Positions 7,984 through 22,963 of a DNA stretch of 64,000 nucleotides are shown one piece after another. This DNA comes from an uncultured Alphaproteobacteria bacterium. Lineage in GTDB: Bacteria; Pseudomonadota; Alphaproteobacteria; Rs-D84. The notes beneath the pieces were generated by a model. That model worked only from the letters and a program-made list of their open reading frames with translations. It was not told where the DNA came from and ran no database searches. The translations under genes were made by a program, and so were the position numbers. Numbering within the stretch: position 1 is the first letter of the stretch; every line of letters starts with the position of its first letter. The stretch covers positions 54,327-118,326 of the forward strand of contig CALXLO010000002.1 in NCBI GenBank assembly GCA_944389235.1, in the 5' to 3' direction.

Positions 7984-8562
7984 TTATGCGGGAAACATAT
8001 CACCGTAATATATAACATCGCCTATTTTCACATGTAATGCCGGACTGGTTAATTTTGCAGTGCGCAGATATAAAACATATTCACCAATATGTAATATACG
8101 ACCGCAATCATCTGCACTATCCGACCCCGGCGGCGAATATAATCCGTCTGGACATTGTGTTATCCCAGAATCTGTGTTTGTTGGGTTAAATGTTCCCCCA
8201 GGGCAATATGAATTTTTCGGACATTGTGTGCAAGAAGTGCTATCTGCCGGTAAATAATATCCTGGATTACAAGATATTTCTTCTATTTCCATCGGAATAC
8301 AGTCATCAATACTGTCATGGTCCGCAGCGGTATCACCAATCGTGCCCGTCCCCGCAGGACACGGGGTACACTCTTCTACTGAATAAAGACAGTCTTCTTG
8401 ATATGTGTTAACTGGGCAAACATAACACTTGCCCGAACTGTCTGGAAAGCTACCGGGGGCACATACAAAGCCGGTATCGGTACCGACTGGTTCACAAAAT
8501 ATTACCCCCCAACCGACATTGCATATCATGCACGCGACAATGGCGACAAATATCTTTTTCAT
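7984..8562 (-). CDS. Small secreted protein built of CxxCP...Y cysteine-rich repeats (furin-like / ephrin-receptor-like pattern)
   Basis: Signal peptide MKKIFVAIVACMICNVGWG. Repeats CYVCPVNTYQ, CTPCPAGTG, CTQCPKNSYCPGGTF. The 3' ~330 bp plus terminator are near-identical to 22690..23027. Confidence 0.8.
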   Translation of the reverse strand: MKKIFVAIVACMICNVGWGVIFCEPVGTDTGFVCAPGSFPDSSGKCYVCPVNTYQEDCLYSVEECTPCPAGTGTIGDTAADHDSIDDCIPMEIEEISCNPGYYLPADSTSCTQCPKNSYCPGGTFNPTNTDSGITQCPDGLYSPPGSDSADDCGRILHIGEYVLYLRTAKLTSPALHVKIGDVIYYGDMFPA

Positions 8563-8745
8563 CTTTAACCCCCATTTTGCAACAAAAAACCACCGGAAAT
8601 AAATTCAAGTGGTTGGAGGTTAGCAACTATCAAATACAATAGTGTCGTTTATTCAATATATTCACGAACCCTCCAACCCGGATTGGTTGGAGTATGCGTA
8701 TTTGCGAGGTTGCTACACCCCATATCAGAAACTTTCTGATACATC
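8563..8745 (-). ncRNA. Structured leader RNA / sRNA, copy A (unnamed motif) upstream of 7984..8562
   Basis: -10 tataat (plus-strand 8749..8754). 5' hairpin atcagaaa/tttctgat, then P1 ctccaacc/ggttggag, a hairpin with loop gaatatattgaataa, a hairpin actat/atagt, then cctccaacc overlapping the terminator aaccac/gtggtt+T-run. SD gggggttaaag follows, then the ATG. Confidence 0.6.
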
Positions 8746-8832
8746 TGTATTATAAAATAAGGCGGATTTTTTTTCCATAACAAAGTTTGTAAACTTTATT
8801 TTTCAATATTATATGTTATATAATTTTGTATT

Positions 8833-9486
8833 ATGAATTTGGAATCATCTGGAATTTTAATATCTTTGCGCCCTTTGGGTGAAACAGATTCGGTTGCGCG
8901 TGTGTTTACATCTGAATACGGTGTTTTGTGTGGCATGATGCGCGGCGCGCAACGCGCGCGCAAAAATCGCCCATTGGTGGGGCAGGTGGGTACAGCATCA
9001 TGGAATGCGCGTCTGGATTCGCAACTGGGGGTATTTCATTGGGATGCAGAAAAAAATTTGGCGGCGACACTTATCTTGTCGCGTGATGCACTGATGTTTA
9101 TGAACAGTGCTTTTGCGTTAATTTCAACATTATTGCCAGAACGAGAACAATATAAAAATTTATATCAGAAAACGGTTGTGTTATTACAAGAATTGTCTGG
9201 AAATAATGCGCATGACGCGTATTTAGATTGGGAAATTATGTTGTTGCGTGAACTGGGGTATGCACTAAATTTGGGGACTTGTTCTGGGTGTGGTACGCAT
9301 GATGATTTGGAATTTTTGTCGCCGCGAACAGGGCGGGCAGTGTGTAAAAACTGTGGTGCGCCGTATGCGACAAAATTGTATCGTTTGCCGTTAACGCTGG
9401 ATGTAACAGGTCGTTTTATTGCGCGCGCGTGTGTCAGCCAGGGCATAGAACTGCCGTTGGGGCGTAAAGTGCTGAATCAGTTATAA
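8833..9486 (+). CDS. recO: DNA repair protein RecO
   Basis: N-terminal OB-fold region (GILISLRPLGETDSVARVFTSEYGVLCGMMRG) and C-terminal zinc motif CSGCG...CKNCG. Confidence 0.8.
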   Translation: MNLESSGILISLRPLGETDSVARVFTSEYGVLCGMMRGAQRARKNRPLVGQVGTASWNARLDSQLGVFHWDAEKNLAATLILSRDALMFMNSAFALISTLLPEREQYKNLYQKTVVLLQELSGNNAHDAYLDWEIMLLRELGYALNLGTCSGCGTHDDLEFLSPRTGRAVCKNCGAPYATKLYRLPLTLDVTGRFIARACVSQGIELPLGRKVLNQL

Positions 9487-9576
9487 TTTTATTTTAGAAA
9501 TATTGATTTATTCCTTGCACAGAATTAAAAAATTCAGTATCTTTTATTTTGTTCAACAGACCAAAAGGAGAAAAGT

Positions 9577-10407
9577 ATGACTTGGACAATACTGATTCTG
9601 GTGATTGGTATCTTGTTGTTCTTGTTTGGTGGCATGCTGTTGCCAAAGAACGCGGACAAGAAGCCATCTGCTGGAAATATAGTTGTAAAAAAATCAATTA
9701 CTTTGATTGCAATCATCTTGATTGCGGGCAGTGTTTGCCGTTTGTATATGCCGTATTATCTGGTACGGGTAAACCCGATTATCGTCCAGGAAATGATTAA
9801 CGGTATGCAAGAACAGCAACAGGCCGAAAAGAACAAGCAAATCCGTAAATATGTTCGCAGCGAAGGCGATAAAATGATGCGTGATGCGCCGGTTCTGGGT
9901 AATCGTGATGCGAAAAAGACGATTTATGTGTGGACAGACTTCTCTTGTCCGTTCTGCCGTCGTGTGCATGGTGAATTGGACCGTGTAATGGCAAATCGTG
10001 ATGACTTCCGCATTGTTATTAAAAACTTCTCTATCCATGGGGCATTGTCGGATGCACCTGCCAAGGCAGTTATTGCAGCAAATCTGCAAGACCCAGCCAA
10101 AGCAGCAAAATTAACAGACATGTTGATGACACGCGAATACTATACCCAAGAAGACTTGCAAGACCAGTCTAAATTGGCTGAAAATGTAGAAGCAAATGTC
10201 ATGAAGTTTGCAAAAGAAGTAGGCTTGGATACAGAAAAATTGAAAGAAGATATGAACGGCGAAGTCGTTGCACGTGAATTAAGAAATGTTCGCGACTTGG
10301 CACAGCGCTTTGAAATCAATGGAACACCGTTCTTGATTATCGGTGAACAGGCTTTCCCAGGCGCAATACCAGCCGATCAAATTGAAAGCGCGTTGGATGC
10401 AGAATAA
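9577..10407 (+). CDS. Membrane-anchored DsbA-family thiol:disulfide oxidoreductase
   Basis: N-terminal TM helices and thioredoxin-fold active site FSCPFCRR (CxxC). ...INGTPFLIIGEQAFPGA is typical of DsbA/DsbG-like proteins. Confidence 0.8.
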   Translation: MTWTILILVIGILLFLFGGMLLPKNADKKPSAGNIVVKKSITLIAIILIAGSVCRLYMPYYLVRVNPIIVQEMINGMQEQQQAEKNKQIRKYVRSEGDKMMRDAPVLGNRDAKKTIYVWTDFSCPFCRRVHGELDRVMANRDDFRIVIKNFSIHGALSDAPAKAVIAANLQDPAKAAKLTDMLMTREYYTQEDLQDQSKLAENVEANVMKFAKEVGLDTEKLKEDMNGEVVARELRNVRDLAQRFEINGTPFLIIGEQAFPGAIPADQIESALDAE

Positions 10408-10426
10408 TATTCTTGAACTAACGCAA

Positions 10427-10456
10427 TAAAAATCCCGCAGTAATGCGGGATTTTTA
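10427..10456. terminator. Rho-independent terminator after the DsbA-like gene
   Basis: aaaaatcccgc-agtaat-gcgggattttt. Confidence 0.75.
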
Positions 10457-10752
10457 TTTGCCGGTTGGTAAATACTGCGTGTCATAGTTTGCGTGCAGTT
10501 TATTTATGTCGTCGCCAGATGTAAAAAAAAACAGCCGGGCATTTTCGCACTTGTGCAGAAAAATAACAGATTATGCCGCATATTTTGGTCAACAAAATGA
10601 TGCCAATTTAATAATATATCAATCTTATATTTTTAGATTAAAAATTCTATCCGTGTTGCATTACCTGATTTTTACGGGGAAATATCGTCGTGAAACATCA
10701 AGAATAGATACAAAAAATAAAAAAAATCCGCGCGGTGTGCGCGGATATGATT

Positions 10753-11922
10753 TTACGAATCGCTTAATATCGCAATTCCGGGCAGGGTGCGACCTTCGAT
10801 AAATTCCAGAAATGCGCCACCACCGGTGGATACATAGGTTATATCGTCTTTGACACCACATGCAGTTAATGCAGCAACAGTATCGCCACCGCCGACGATA
10901 CTTTCTAATTTGCCGGCGCGTGTTTGTTCGGCAATTGCATGTGCGATGGCAAAACTGCCGTATGACCAGGTGGGCTGCCATTCAGCCATGCCGACTGTTC
11001 CATTCCAGATTACTGTTGCGGCGGCGCGAATTTCTGCAACATCGCGTTCTGTTGTTGCAATGCCGGAATCGATTATAATGTCATCGTCGGCGATTTCAGA
11101 AAAATTTTTGTTTGTGCGTGGTGAATCTGGGGTAAATGTTTTTGATACGCCTTTATCCAGTGGTAATAAAACTGTGCAATTATTTTGTTTCGCATATTCC
11201 AAGATTTCTAATGCGGTATCTTTCTGGTCGGCTTCGTACAAAGAATTTCCAACTTTGCCACCGGTCGCAAAATTAAATGTTGTGCCCAATGCGCCACCGA
11301 TAATTAGTTTATCGGATAATTTTGCCAATGCTTTCAGTACACCGATTTTTGTTGAAACTTTGCTGCCGGCGACAATGGATAACAGTGGACGGCGCGGATT
11401 TTCCATAACCGCAGACAGATGTTCTATTTCCGATGCTAATAATTTTCCGGCATACGATGGTAATATTTCTGCGACACCAACAGTACTGGCATGCGCGCGA
11501 TGCGATACAGCAAATGCGTCGTTAATAAATATATCGTACGATTCGGCCAACTGTTGTGCAAATGTGGGGTCATTTGATTCTTCCCCTGGATAAAAACGCA
11601 CATTTTCCAGCAAGACTACATCGCCATCTTGCATGTTTTTCATAAAATCTTTGTCCAAGCAATCGGAAATTAGCGGAATTTTCATATATTCGGCAACTGG
11701 TGCCAAACTGTATTCCATATTGCGCGTACCCTTGGGACGACCCAAATGCGCGCAAATCGCGATTCGTGCGCCACCGTTACGCAGTGCGTTTATGGTTGGC
11801 ATGCTTTGTTCAATGCGAAATGCGTCGGTTATTTTTCCGTCAACAATCTGGACATTGAAATCATCGCGCAGCAATACATATTTGCCACGAACATCCAGTT
11901 TATCAATCGTGCGAAGTTTCAT
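10753..11922 (-). CDS. pgk: Phosphoglycerate kinase
   Basis: MKLRTIDKLDVRGKYVLLRDDFNV..., ...AHLGRPKG..., ...NDAFAVSHRAHAST..., ...STGGGAFLEF... Confidence 0.95.
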   Translation of the reverse strand: MKLRTIDKLDVRGKYVLLRDDFNVQIVDGKITDAFRIEQSMPTINALRNGGARIAICAHLGRPKGTRNMEYSLAPVAEYMKIPLISDCLDKDFMKNMQDGDVVLLENVRFYPGEESNDPTFAQQLAESYDIFINDAFAVSHRAHASTVGVAEILPSYAGKLLASEIEHLSAVMENPRRPLLSIVAGSKVSTKIGVLKALAKLSDKLIIGGALGTTFNFATGGKVGNSLYEADQKDTALEILEYAKQNNCTVLLPLDKGVSKTFTPDSPRTNKNFSEIADDDIIIDSGIATTERDVAEIRAAATVIWNGTVGMAEWQPTWSYGSFAIAHAIAEQTRAGKLESIVGGGDTVAALTACGVKDDITYVSTGGGAFLEFIEGRTLPGIAILSDS

Positions 11923-12538
11923 TTTTTATCCTTTCCTTAATCGGTCCAAAAGATTTTCTGTAATGTTGGTTTATACCATATTTATCAATTGCGTGCAAAT
12001 GTTCTGGGGTGGGATAACCGGCATTTTTATCCCATCCGTACATCGGATATTGTATTGATAAATCGTGCATGATTTTATCGCGTGTTTCTTTGGCAATGAT
12101 TGATGCAGCGGCAATTGATAATGATTTTGCATCCCCATGAACAACAGCAAAACCGTTAATATTTGGCGGCAACTTGTTCCCGTCAATTAAGCAAAACTGT
12201 GGTGTGCAGGTCAATTTTTGCACAGCGCGCGTCATTGCCAGTAATGACGCGTGTAATATATTTAATTCATCAATTTCCAAAGGGCTGCATTCAGCCGCCG
12301 CCCATATTGTATTTTGTGTAATCCAATCATATGCCATCGCGCGCATGCGTGGTGTCATTTGTTTAGAATCACGAATTATAACCGGAATTTCAATATCGCG
12401 GTATGGAAATATAACCGCTGCGGCAACAACTGGGCCACACAGGGGGCCGCGGCCGGCTTCGTCCACGCCGGCAACAATGTCATAATTACAACGGTTTTCA
12501 ATTTCAAATGTGGGTGTTTCTGTCATGATTGATAACAT
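11903..12538 (-). CDS. rnhB: Ribonuclease HII
   Basis: VAGVDEAGRGPLCGPVVAAAV..., ...DSKQMT..., ...IDGNKLP... The start may be the internal ATG at 12526. Confidence 0.9.
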   Translation of the reverse strand: MLSIMTETPTFEIENRCNYDIVAGVDEAGRGPLCGPVVAAAVIFPYRDIEIPVIIRDSKQMTPRMRAMAYDWITQNTIWAAAECSPLEIDELNILHASLLAMTRAVQKLTCTPQFCLIDGNKLPPNINGFAVVHGDAKSLSIAAASIIAKETRDKIMHDLSIQYPMYGWDKNAGYPTPEHLHAIDKYGINQHYRKSFGPIKERIKNETSHD

Positions 12539-12584
12539 ATCATAAATTTATAGAATTTGGGAATTTTTTTATATATAATGCGCA

Positions 12585-12762
12585 ATGTATTGGTGTATTG
12601 CCAATATGAGAAGTCAAGACCTCTTTCAGAACGCGTTTCAGTTGATTGAAACGAAAAGTCTCCAACTGCAAGTGGTTGGAGGGTGTTGAATATAAAATAA
12701 AACACGCTATTCGTTCTGATAGTTCTTGAACCTCCAACCACCTAAAAATTGGTGGTTTTTTA
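12585..12762 (+). ncRNA. Structured leader RNA / sRNA, copy C (orphan: no Cys-rich gene follows)
   Basis: -10 tatataat at 12571..12578. Hairpin attgg-tgtattg-ccaat has the same loop as copy B with a covarying stem. P1 ctccaac/gttggag, hairpin gtgtt-gaatataaaataa-aacac, hairpin ctat/atag, then cctccaacc (12731..12739) overlapping the terminator aaccacc/ggtggtt+T-run. Confidence 0.6.
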
Positions 12763-12814
12763 TTTAGGGGGTAAAATTATGTAGGGCAGGGCGATAATAG
12801 TTTCTGAATTTGAT

Positions 12815-13138
12815 GTGCGGTTGGGGCATATTATTGCAATGGTGCGTGCGCGCCACGGCATGTCGCAAAAAGATTTAGCAGAAAAACTGGGGATTTCTTT
12901 TCAACAAGTTCAAAAATATGAATGTGCAGCAAACAGAATATCTGCGGCGCGACTGTATGAAATCAGTCGTATTTTTGAAATTCCGATGTGTCGCATGATT
13001 AATGCCACAGGTGATGCGTATGTTCATGATAAATTTATGACAGATTTAATTTGTGCTATTTATAAATTAAGTACAAACAATCGCAAAATGATTGCAAAAA
13101 TTGTGTTGGCATTAACCAACAGCGATTCGCACAAATAG
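12815..13138 (+). CDS. XRE-family helix-turn-helix transcriptional regulator
   Basis: HGMSQKDLAEKLGISFQQVQKYECAANRISAARLYEISRIFEIP is a classic HTH_3 motif. The true start may be the ATG at 12839. Confidence 0.8.
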   Translation: MRLGHIIAMVRARHGMSQKDLAEKLGISFQQVQKYECAANRISAARLYEISRIFEIPMCRMINATGDAYVHDKFMTDLICAIYKLSTNNRKMIAKIVLALTNSDSHK

Positions 13139-21310: not shown

Positions 21311-21395
21311 GGCCCCGTGGCGGAATTGGTAGACGCGCTTGACTCAAAATCAAGTTCCGCAAGGAGTGTCGGTTCAAGTCCGACCAGGGCCACCA
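21311..21395 (+). tRNA. tRNA-Leu (anticodon CAA), CCA encoded
   Basis: Type II cloverleaf folded by hand. Anticodon arm cttga-ctCAAaa-tcaag, long variable arm, T arm gtcgg-ttcaagt-ccgac, discriminator A. Confidence 0.85.
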
Positions 21396-21400
21396 GAAAT

Positions 21401-21428
21401 AAAACATCTGTCATTTGACAGATGTTTT
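21401..21428 (+). terminator. Terminator after tRNA-Leu
   Basis: aaaacatctgtca-ttt-gacagatgtttt. Confidence 0.8.
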
Positions 21429-21513: not shown

Positions 21514-21633
21514 GAATCTAAACCACCCTTTAGATTCGGCACCTTTTGAGATTAAAACAGTCCAAAAATCCAGGTTTTTTTATTTTAATTTATGCCGAAT
21601 CTAAAGGGTGGTTTAGATTCGGCATGTTTTTTT
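21514..21633 (+). repeat. Pair of hairpins with identical stems and complementary loops; the second is followed by a T-run
   Basis: gaatctaaa-CCACCC-tttagattcggca (21514..21541) and tgccgaatctaaa-GGGTGG-tttagattcggca (21593..21624), then tgttttttt. Confidence 0.7.
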
Positions 21634-21810
21634 GCGTTGCATGGTGCAGAAATCTGATAAAAATCATGATTTTTGCTATTATATAATATTACTTTATTCA
21701 ATATATACAATATAAAAATTTAGCGGCGTGTGCCAGATGCAAAAATGGCGACAAAATTTTATACATAAAACCGATAGATTTTGAAAAGTAAAATATATAT
21801 AATAATAATT

Positions 21811-22006
21811 GCAGTGGTGTGTTGCCACTGTGGGGGTCATAGCTCGATACCAAGCATCATGCGGATGTAAAACGAAACTCCAACCAATGTGGGTTGGAGG
21901 TGGCTTTGAATATATTGAATAAAAGCCACAATTCTTGGTAATTGCTATGAACCTCCAACCACCTGAATGTTTCCGGTGGTTTTTTGTTGTAAAACGGGGG
22001 GTAAAG
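21811..22006 (+). ncRNA. Structured leader RNA / sRNA, copy B, upstream of the disrupted Cys-rich gene
   Basis: A tataat-like -10 sits just upstream. Hairpin cagtgg-tgtgttg-ccactg; P1 ctccaacc (21878..21885)/ggttggag (21892..21899); hairpin gtggcttt-gaatatattgaataa-aagccac; hairpin caatt/aattg; cctccaacc (21952..21960) overlapping the terminator aaccacc/ggtggtt+T-run. SD ggggggtaaag precedes the ATG at 22007. Confidence 0.6.
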
Positions 22007-22963
22007 ATGAAAACGCAAAGCATAGCAACAAGCATGCTGATGTCAATCGGTGTTGTACTGCTATTGCTGTGGAATGTTCACCTGGGTATTATGTTTCCGG
22101 CAACAGTTGCATGGATTGTGGCAATGGCTATTATTGTCCTGATGGTATTAACAGAATATCATGTAAAGATACTGTAAAGCCGGGCTCGCCAGAACCAAAT
22201 GCGATTCAATCAATTTCAAATGGCAGTTGGGCTGACAATAATCATGCAGTCAGCGAATGGGATTGTGTATGTGATTGGGAATTTGAAGATGAAACCAGAA
22301 TAAAATATTTGAATGAAGGCGCGTGTCCAACTGGACCTTGGGAACCTGATTATACCTATTATTACTGGTGTCGCACCGGATATTATGCCAACGACCCTTT
22401 GCATAGAGGTGATTGGTATTCCAGTTGTTCGCCATGTACCAATGGACCCGAAAATTCAATATATACAGGTTATTCAACCCCATCGGTTATGTATGCTGTG
22501 GAAAGTAATTGTCCGTGGCAATGTAATGCAGGATATTATCGTGATGGTAATATTTGTATGGGTTGCCCTGAAACGCATCCAAATTCTGCCACCGGCAGTG
22601 ATAATATAAATCACTGCTATGCAATATGTAATAATAATAAAATAGCATATTATGATAACAATTGTACCTATCCGATTGAATGTACGCAGGGGTATTATTT
22701 ACCTGCAAACAGCCAGCAGTGTACACAGTGTCCGAAAAATTCATATTGCCCTGGGGGAACATTTAACCCAACAAACACAGATTCTGGGATAACACAATGC
22801 CCAGATAATATGTATTCGCCGCTGGGTTCTGATAGCGCAGATGATTGGTATATTACATATTGGCGAATATGTTTTATATCTGCGCACTGCAAAATTAACC
22901 AGTCCGGCATTACATGTGAAAATAGGCGATGTTATATATTACGGTGATATGTTTCCTGCATAA
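22007..22963 (+). pseudogene. Paralogue of 7984..8562 (CxxCP...Y Cys-rich repeat protein), apparently disrupted by two frameshifts
   Basis: The conserved SD+ATG (22007) opens a signal-peptide frame (MKTQSIATSMLMSIGVVLLLL) that stops at 22177. The Cys-rich body is in another frame (ORF 21967..22947). Five nt are missing near 22849 relative to copy 1 (gattgcggtcgtata vs gattggtata), which puts the conserved tail ...ILHIGEYVLYLRTAKLTSPALHVKIGDVIYYGDMFPA out of frame. Confidence 0.55.

Follow-up and report, generated by a model that had tools for sequence, protein, structure and literature searches.

A 64,000-nucleotide (nt) stretch of DNA from an uncultured alphaproteobacterium of the order Rs-D84 (assembly GCA_944389235.1, contig CALXLO010000002.1, positions 54,327 to 118,326; the whole stretch is referred to here as the window) contains three copies of an unnamed sequence of about 175 nt, and the question raised by the locus is what these copies encode. 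A first-pass annotation of the window had described an unnamed structured RNA that was either a leader or a small RNA (sRNA). Our analyses indicated that the structured RNA is genuine and favoured the term "leader", as the genes that follow have no room for promoters of their own. We consider it likely that the element represents a new family of cis-acting, transcription-attenuating leader RNA, ~175 nt long, an attenuator or a leader akin to an orphan riboswitch that terminates by default. The fold was also larger than first described: the long-range helices P0 and PL and, probably, a pseudoknot were added, and one of the hairpins proposed earlier fell outside the main fold.

Three copies of the element in the window

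The window contained exactly three copies, 5' hairpin H1 included, which we named A (8584-8742, minus strand), B (12587-12761, plus strand) and C (21811-21985, plus strand). Their positions agreed with the first-pass annotation, which had placed them near 8563..8745 (minus), 12585..12762 (plus) and 21811..22006 (plus). The three copies aligned with one another over their whole length, and a covariance model built from homologues (R1) gave three strong matches in the 64-kb window and none besides: 111.9 bits for copy C (21831-21985, plus), 104.9 bits for copy A (8584-8721, minus) and 104.1 bits for copy B (12608-12761, plus). In addition, CCTCCAACCAC occurred four times in the window versus 0.55 expected, and the fold stabilities of the three copies relative to dinucleotide shuffles had z values of -6.0, -5.9 and -3.9. 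The features of the copies, in window coordinates and with the evidence for each, are as follows (MFE, minimum free energy; SD, Shine-Dalgarno sequence).

Copy C
21781..21809, plus strand: promoter-like site, TTGAAA-17-AATAAT; alternative TATAAT at 21798-21803
21811..21831, plus strand: H1, 5' hairpin with loop GUGUU; MFE fold and H1 covariation in 93 homologues
21832..21846, plus strand: H2, local hairpin GGGGG...CUC, its loop holding the P0 5' strand UCAUAGC (21837-21843)
21848..21854, plus strand: PL 5' strand (L), UACCAAG, with partner 21934-21940; MFE fold and duplex test
21855..21867, plus strand: hairpin X, CAUC-AUGCG-GAUG, optional and not in copy A; helix 4, 93.8% paired
21878..21899, plus strand: P1 hairpin CUCCAACC/GGUUGGAG (anti-antiterminator); three-way covariation with the switch
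21902..21927, plus strand: P2, stem GGCUU(U)/(A)AAGCC with conserved loop GAAUAUAUUGAAUAA; helix 6
21929..21944, plus strand: CAAUU-L'-AAUUG, in which L' (21934-21940) is the PL 3' strand and the flanks can form alternative hairpin P3
21944..21950, plus strand: P0 3' strand GCUAUGA; MFE fold, alignments and R1
21952..21960, plus strand: switch CCUCCAACC, forming the antiterminator with GGUUGGAGG (21892-21900) and overlapping the terminator 5' arm
21957..21985, plus strand: intrinsic terminator AACCACC...GGUGGUU with UUUUUU; MFE fold, helices 7 and 8
21996..22009, plus strand: SD GGGGGGU and ATG (22007) of a frameshifted cysteine-rich gene

Copy A
8584..8742, minus strand: leader, with H1 8722-8742, GGGG 8718-8721 and -10 TATAAT 8749-8754
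Minus strand: P0 8709-8715 with 8621-8627; PL 8698-8704 with 8631-8637
Minus strand: P1 8671-8692; P2 8645-8667; switch 8611-8619; terminator 8584-8614
7984..8573, minus strand: span of the downstream gene, with SD 8569-8573 and ATG 8560-8562, for a 192-amino-acid (aa) secreted cysteine-rich protein

Copy B
12587..12761, plus strand: leader, with H1 12587-12607, -10 TATAAT 12574-12579 and P1 12660-12681
Plus strand: P0 12614-12620 with 12722-12729; PL 12627-12633 with 12712-12718
Plus strand: switch 12731-12739; terminator 12736-12761
12779..13138, plus strand: downstream region, with a vestigial ATG-TAG (12779-12784) and a 99-aa XRE-type helix-turn-helix (HTH) gene (12839-13138)

Homologues in Rs-D84 bacteria

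More than 200 homologous copies were found, their hosts being uncultured Alphaproteobacteria of the gut and rumen (Candidatus Enterousia, order Rs-D84). Scan 1, which covered one genome per species with the pattern CTCCAAC-N6-10-GTTGGAG-N40-70-CCTCCAAC, returned at least 120 loci, and among the matches listed all but six chance matches (L015, L070, L074, L078, L113 and L115) came from uncultured gut, rumen or faecal Alphaproteobacteria, many of them Candidatus Enterousia. Scan 2 covered metagenome contigs with a pattern made of the P2 loop and the following CRCWAT, so that P1 and the switch were left free, and R1 confirmed 92 copies among the first 100 loci listed. Single metagenome-assembled genomes held many copies, at least 8 in Red_deer_3_mag_193 and at least 6 in each of CAMZDE01 and JAZNAO01. 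Two alignments were used for the structural analyses, a plain MAFFT alignment of 109 distinct copies (A2) and a model-fitted alignment of 114 copies (A4).

The window itself is bacterial chromosome of ~41% GC with genes such as pgk, rnhB, recO, clpB and polA, and its PGK protein was identical to proteins on metagenome scaffolds in ENA that also bear copies A and B. Enterousia belongs to the order Rs-D84, whose members are uncultured residents of the gut and rumen with genomes of ~0.75-1 Mb; they lack the tricarboxylic acid cycle, respiration and most biosynthetic pathways and presumably depend on other organisms (PMC12306168).

Architecture and covariation of the fold

Reading of the homologues showed that the family begins with an extended -10 (TGnTAnAAT), followed after ~8 nt by H1, whose loop is G-U/A-G/A-U-U. 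After H1 come GRGG-YGU, the 7-nt 5' strand of P0, CC(Y), the linker L, the optional hairpin X and an A-rich stretch, and next in order are the P1 hairpin, GG, and P2, a short variable stem closed by the conserved loop. P2 is followed by CRCUAU or CACAAUU, L', AUAGU or AAUUGU, the P0 3' strand and AACCUCCAACC. The 3' end of the element is formed by the terminator (AACCRCC...GGYGGUU and a U-run), beyond which stand an SD and a start codon.

The two long-range helices and the local hairpin H2 had been overlooked in the first-pass annotation. P0, whose strands are ~130 nt apart, had canonical pairs in 108-109 of the 109 sequences of A2, with up to four Watson-Crick pair types per position (five counting G-U). 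For PL, an alignment-free duplex test gave a mean of -9.5 kcal/mol with a sequence's own partner versus -2.9 kcal/mol with the partners of other sequences; the own partner was the better one in all 109 cases, and the longest complementary run averaged 8.2 versus 4.7. PL was also present in the MFE folds of all three window copies (UACCAAG/CUUGGUA, CAGAACG/CGUUCUG and CAAAUAC/GUAUUUG). The pair 2-15 of H2 (GRGG/CCYC) was GC in 72, AU in 21 and GU in 17 sequences, and the exchange of G-C for A-U supports this hairpin. As the P0 5' strand sits in the loop of H2, the two together have the topology of an H-type pseudoknot.

The nested structure was assessed in A4, in which 95.0% of cells were paired versus 76.5% in shuffles and two-sided changes occurred at 29 of the 35 pairs. 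The covariation score was 0.478 versus 0.153 for shuffled alignments (none of 500 shuffles reached 0.478), and slid controls scored at most 0.077. H1 showed compensatory changes at seven of nine pairs in 93 homologues, P2 (helix 6) was 98.2% paired with all three of its pairs compensated, and the terminator (helices 7 and 8) covaried as well. The TATAAT-like -10, the 5' hairpin, the P1 stem and the hairpin with a conserved AU-rich loop and compensatory stems (P2) that the first-pass annotation had named held up, the first being part of the family-wide extended -10 and P1 covarying together with the switch. Its argument that compensatory stems reflect a selected RNA structure gained in force, as covariation across more than 200 homologues was strong; the covariance model and homologue search that it had proposed produced many homologues, and the covariation scores supported pairs.

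A further hairpin with compensatory stems, proposed to lie after P2, did not survive as part of the main fold, since L' within it pairs with L ~80 nt upstream to form PL. At best, its stems (CUAU/AUAG or CAAUU/AAUUG) form the alternative hairpin P3. Pair 192-213 of P3 was UA in 58 sequences, AU in 53 and other in 3, a two-state exchange. Based on the incompatibility of P3 with PL, we read P3 as a hairpin of an alternative conformation.

In about a quarter of the copies the P2 loop consists of GAAUAAU, a variable hairpin and AAAAUAAG, the hairpin being self-complementary. These insertions were seen in A2 at columns ~125-145, for example in loci L005, L010, L019, L025 and L094. A self-complementary insert within the loop implies that the conserved loop is really the two strands of an internal loop, and the GAAUA/AAUAA loop may resemble an internal loop of the UAA/GAN type. 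The loop was also considered as a DNA operator (GAATA-N-GAATA), which is unlikely because a hairpin of variable length splits the halves in about a quarter of the copies, so that their adjacency is kept in RNA and not in DNA.

Two other candidate pairings were rejected. Kissing of the H1 and P2 loops gave equal values for own and cross partners (-1.14 and -1.12 kcal/mol). Pairing of the 5' GGGG with CCUCC, which appeared in the MFE fold of copy C, showed no compensation and was broken by GAGG variants, H2 being supported instead; in a register shifted by one base GGGG:CCUCC is still compatible and carries no information.

The two strands of P1 and the switch change together

The segment GGUUGGAGG, which is the P1 3' strand plus one G, has two possible partners, either CUCCAACC to form P1 or the downstream CCUCCAACC, and the AACC of CCUCCAACC doubles as the start of the terminator stem. 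In the set collected without constraint on P1 or the switch, both strands of P1 changed together with the switch, and the same three-way change was seen in R1-found copies that failed the pattern of scan 1. The variants were as follows.

Class I: CUCCAAC / GUUGGAG / CCUCCAACC
Class II, ~14 sequences: CUCCUGAC / GUCAGGAG / CCUCCUG(A/G)CC
Single or rare: CCCCAACC / GGUUGGGAU / AUCCCAACC
Single or rare: GGUUGGAUG / CAUCCAACC
Single or rare: GGCUGGAGG / CUCCAGCC
Single or rare: UCCCGACC / GGUCGGGA / CUCCCGACC

The ninth pair, which belongs to the antiterminator only, changed from G-C to U-A in at least seven sequences (GGUUGGAGU with ACUCCAACC), with no parallel change in the P1 5' strand. As a complement of the shared strand the switch was more exact than the P1 5' strand, which often ended in a wobble or mismatch. 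These three-way compensatory variants indicated that P1 and the antiterminator helix are both under selection, which is the signature expected of a regulated alternative fold, and they bear out the earlier proposal of a switch segment and terminator with mutually exclusive 1:2, 2:3 and 3:4 pairings. In addition, CCUCC was not universal among the switch variants, which argues against mimicry of a ribosome-binding site as the main point of this segment.

When P1 and the terminator were enforced, the window copies had energies of -58.2, -65.6 and -78.6 kcal/mol, within 0.2 kcal/mol of, or equal to, the unconstrained MFE. Enforcing the antiterminator gave -46.2, -52.2 and -55.0 kcal/mol. The OFF fold was thus lower by 12-24 kcal/mol in all three copies, making termination the predicted default.

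An ATG just upstream of the switch (GCUAUGAACC, 21947-21949) was considered as the start of a conserved leader peptide and rejected, as it occurred in copy C and not family-wide. Three copies (L127:2573-2735, L148:5031-5194 and L139:324-478) kept GGUUGGAGG, the switch and the terminator and were missing a recognisable P1 5' strand; these might be read through constitutively.

Genes downstream of the element

The leader was always on the same strand as the gene that followed it, the SD was usually good, and the distance from the end of the terminator to the start codon had a median of 26 nt (interquartile range 22-33). This leaves no room for a separate promoter, so that read-through would be required for the downstream gene to be expressed. 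An N-terminus resembling a signal peptide, as called by a simple hydrophobicity rule, was present in 133 of 176 non-redundant downstream proteins (76%) versus 29.5% of 1269 control open reading frames (ORFs) from the same loci. Among the remaining proteins the largest recognisable group was small HTH proteins of ~58-115 aa. Pfam searches with 88 downstream proteins identified HTH_31/HTH_3 in eight, Flg_new in five, Ephrin_rec_like in three, and LRR and an EcoRI-type methylase in one each; most of the 88 were without a Pfam match, and the matches included no transporters or enzymes of a single pathway. The downstream proteins were mutually unrelated, with a mean column identity of 6%.

Within the window, copy A precedes the 192-aa secreted cysteine-rich protein, which has an Ephrin_rec_like domain and gave no match in an exact look-up in the assembly index, and copy C precedes a frameshifted paralogue of this protein. 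The copy C gene (22007-22963, plus strand) has a signal peptide read from ATG 22007 that stops after 56 codons, a body in another frame and, in the third frame, a last stretch of 37 residues that is 100% identical to protein A. The broken gene is either a pseudogene or a product of indel errors in the assembly. The first-pass statement that two copies precede secreted proteins with CxxCP repeats is therefore correct for copies A and C, with only one of the two genes being intact, and needs the correction that copy B precedes an XRE-type HTH gene. Copy B has kept its SD and ATG, the next codon is TAG, and the first real gene, for the 99-aa XRE-type protein, begins ~80 nt past the terminator. 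As for the conserved SD and ATG that had been noted, an SD and start codon follow the terminator family-wide; the close similarity of this segment between copies A and C reflects the paralogy of their genes.

The spacer at loci where the gene lies more than 100 nt away (L084, L109, L013, L028 and L081) often held short GC-rich palindromic repeats, such as GGTGGCGTATTTCCACGCATTTATACGCCACCACC, which look like insertions of the REP (repetitive extragenic palindromic) type. Tandem arrays of two or three leader copies were seen at L083:5565-6130 (minus), L077:2372-3004 (minus), L201:8710-9106 (plus) and L214:8186-8589 (plus). In the L083 and L077 arrays, whose sequences were read, each copy had its own -10 box and there was no ORF between copies; the L201 and L214 arrays are known from match coordinates only. 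Some upstream copies in tandem were degenerate, their terminator being weak or their P1 mismatched (L083:5982-6130 and L077:2623-2771).

Other features of the window adjoin the leaders. The region 8833-12538 contains ordinary housekeeping genes (recO, a DsbA-like thioredoxin, pgk and rnhB), and no conserved partner gene was seen in it next to the leaders. A perfect 15-bp terminator-like hairpin with a T-run is located at 21591-21626 (plus strand), ~185 nt upstream of copy C, and a 12-bp palindrome at 21401-21428, which scores as a terminator on both strands, adjoins the tRNA at 21311-21392.

Comparison with known regulatory RNAs

Searches with the 4227 models of Rfam 15 at gathering thresholds identified only three tRNAs in the whole window and only tRNA and rRNA in 15 homologous loci, and scans of copy C and the consensus-like homologue L012 at permissive E-values returned noise far below the thresholds. 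No description of the element turned up in full-text literature searches on Enterousia, on Rs-D84 together with riboswitches or RNA motifs, and on the literal strings CCUCCAACC and GGUUGGAGG. As judged from its sequence, the element is a member of no described family, in keeping with the first-pass annotation, which had recognised no known riboswitch class and had proposed the Rfam scan.

Two of the attributes of riboswitches were found, namely a conserved structured domain with covariation and a mutually exclusive terminator/antiterminator platform in the 5' untranslated region (UTR), the latter from the three-way covariation, the covariation of the terminator and the median of 26 nt to the start codon. 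The 88 downstream proteins did not point to one metabolite or pathway, and with regard to ligand binding the element is a candidate riboswitch class.

In the classical terminator/antiterminator/anti-antiterminator leaders, among them the PyrR-bound leaders of the Bacillus pyr operon and the 1:2/2:3/3:4 attenuators of the trp type, three overlapping complementary segments decide whether a terminator forms just upstream of the gene. The element described here is alike in this respect, its anti-antiterminator being P1, its antiterminator GGUUGGAGG:CCUCCAACC and its terminator AACCRCC/GGYGGUU. It differs in having no conserved leader peptide, no recognised binding motif of the PyrR type or other known kind and no Rfam match, and in that its switch forms part of a domain of ~130 nt that has two long-range helices and probably a pseudoknot. 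The c-di-GMP-I/GEMM riboswitches occur in many copies per genome before genes for surface and secreted proteins in Clostridioides and Geobacter. They share with the element a complex covarying fold, a terminator platform in the 5' UTR, a high copy number and the control of adhesin-like or secreted proteins instead of one biosynthetic pathway; however, the architecture is different, there was no match to an Rfam riboswitch, and the associated genes do not hint at a ligand.

T-box leaders have a conserved T-box sequence in the antiterminator bulge and a Stem I with a specifier loop. Like them, the element is a multi-helix leader of ~200 nt in many copies per genome, in which an antiterminator competes with a terminator and the default is OFF, a T-box requiring a trans-acting RNA as its effector. 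In contrast to T-boxes, the element has neither a T-box sequence nor a Stem I/specifier, it was not matched by an RF00230-type model or any other in Rfam, its host is alphaproteobacterial, and the downstream genes encode secreted and HTH proteins, which are not aminoacyl-tRNA-related. ANTAR targets consist of two tandem hairpins with hexanucleotide loops, the second of which overlaps the terminator. Inspection of the consensus, no dedicated ANTAR model being run, revealed no tandem hexaloop hairpins, and unlike such a pair the antiterminator of the element is a long-range helix of 9-10 bp around P2 and P3. Lastly, the alphaproteobacterial CcsR or "cuckoo" sRNAs (alpha-r14) and Staphylococcus RsaE carry CCUCCUCCC motifs in hairpin loops and act in trans, and genes of the alpha-r14 type stand independent of any downstream ORF; they share with the element a C-rich CCUCC, a promoter and terminator of their own and the occurrence of sibling or tandem copies. 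There was, however, no Rfam match to an sRNA of this kind, CCUCCAACC is a strand of a covarying internal alternative helix, and the element has a fixed position upstream of start codons.

Alternative explanations

Several observations weigh against an attenuating leader. We infer the start site, termination and read-through from sequence, and the patterns used to collect most of the homologues prescribed parts of the motif. The local P1 hairpin is stable, so that it is hard to see how the antiterminator would win without a factor. The likely pseudoknot follows from topological reasoning, and the covariation of P3 is limited to two states, so that two ancient subfamilies could account for it instead of repeated compensation. 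The predicted downstream proteins have no shared metabolic theme from which a ligand could be guessed, and both the ATG-TAG after copy B and the ORF-less tandem copies at L083 and L077 are as compatible with a stand-alone RNA as with a leader.

The copies might instead be sibling sRNAs that act mainly in trans, in which CCUCCAACC, C-rich and single-stranded beside the terminator, would be an anti-SD seed that blocks translation of targets. Such a role would suit copies with their own -10 box and intrinsic terminator, the tandems without intervening ORFs (L083, L077, L201 and L214), the ATG-TAG of copy B and the complementarity of CCUCC to ribosome-binding sites of the GGAGG type, and short transcripts should accumulate if the terminated form is the thermodynamic default. 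However, the would-be seed and the internal GGUUGGAGG strand covary, and some of the changes in the seed destroy the anti-SD (ACUCC, AUCCC and CAUCC), as an intramolecular partner predicts. Nearly every copy is also in sense orientation, with the median of 26 nt between terminator and start, so that the downstream genes would depend on read-through. We regard this explanation as improbable; terminated leaders may have a secondary role in trans.

Still less probable, in our estimation, is that the copies are a duplicated promoter-plus-5' UTR cassette of an expanding secreted-protein family, or a mobile intergenic repeat, without a regulated switch. Their similarity would then be kept by duplication or gene conversion, and the structure would act in mRNA stability or as a constitutive insulator only. 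The many copies in small genomes (at least 8 in Red_deer_3_mag_193), the degenerate copies (L083:5982-6130 and L077:2623-2771), the paralogues behind copies A and C with their 37 identical last residues, and the fast-evolving, lineage-specific nature of the downstream proteins are compatible with this. Yet copies within a genome differ widely in sequence and still pair in six helices, which argues for purifying selection on structure and not recent copying. P1 and the antiterminator, which exclude each other, are both kept by compensation, and a constitutive element would have no use for such a pair. The downstream genes are mutually unrelated (6% mean column identity), and reading of the flanks revealed no terminal inverted repeats or target duplications. 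Least probable of the three is control mainly of translation, with CCUCC sequestering the downstream SD and a decoy, either the 5' GGGG or GGAGG in P1, freeing it. The SDs are indeed G-rich, and in the MFE folds of copies A and B the GGGGG further downstream is the partner of CCUCC..., but in almost all copies an intrinsic terminator with its U-run lies between CCUCC and the SD, and both the distance and the sequence of the SD vary. Changes in CCUCC are matched by compensating ones in the P1 3' strand. GGGG:CCUCC is uncompensated, being broken in the tested register by 24 sequences with A at position 2.

Proposed mechanism and implications

The alignments and folds establish the helices, both alternative pairings and the gene association, and from these we propose how an attenuating leader would operate, with regulated switching and its trigger being inferred. 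Transcription would start at the extended -10 promoter just upstream of H1, and the nascent RNA would fold compactly, H2 presenting the P0 5' strand in its loop in an H-type pseudoknot topology and PL closing a junction that contains the optional hairpin X, the P1 hairpin and P2 with its GAAUA...AAUAA loop or internal loop. In the OFF state, P1 would hold GGUUGGAGG and leave CCUCCAACC free, so that AACC could join the terminator (AACCRCC/GGYGGUU and the U-run) and transcription would stop ~26 nt before the start codon. In the ON state, P1 and the long-range fold would be unformed or opened, GGUUGGAGG:CCUCCAACC would form the antiterminator of 9-10 bp together with the alternative hairpin P3, and the polymerase would read into the gene. 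Such an attenuator would need an input for read-through, or its folded domain would need stabilising to stay OFF. Based on the OFF state being the thermodynamic default, an effector, either a small molecule or an RNA-binding factor, would shift the balance. The effector may be a small molecule, a protein or an RNA, and the best candidates for its site would be the conserved junction and the GAAUA/AAUAA loop of P2. With many copies per genome, small HTH regulators and secreted or surface proteins would come under its joint control as one regulon.

We speculate, more tentatively, that the element could be a new orphan riboswitch class, in which a pseudoknotted four-way-junction aptamer senses a small molecule, such as a second messenger or a metabolite of host or partner origin, and masters the secreted and surface repertoire; on balance we lean against this more specific possibility. 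It would place about ten or more copies of one riboswitch in each sub-megabase genome of the genome-reduced, partner-dependent Rs-D84/Enterousia bacteria.

To our knowledge, nothing is known of gene regulation in Rs-D84/Enterousia bacteria. For RNA biology, the family would add a large and well-covarying class from outside Rfam, with a three-partner switch in which compensatory changes back both conformations, which makes it a promising subject for structural studies and for finding a ligand or effector. If the proposed function is correct, an element that fronts a large share of the genes for signal-peptide proteins and small HTH regulators would define the main regulon with which these bacteria interact with a host or partner, and it would offer an experimental handle on what Rs-D84/Enterousia sense.

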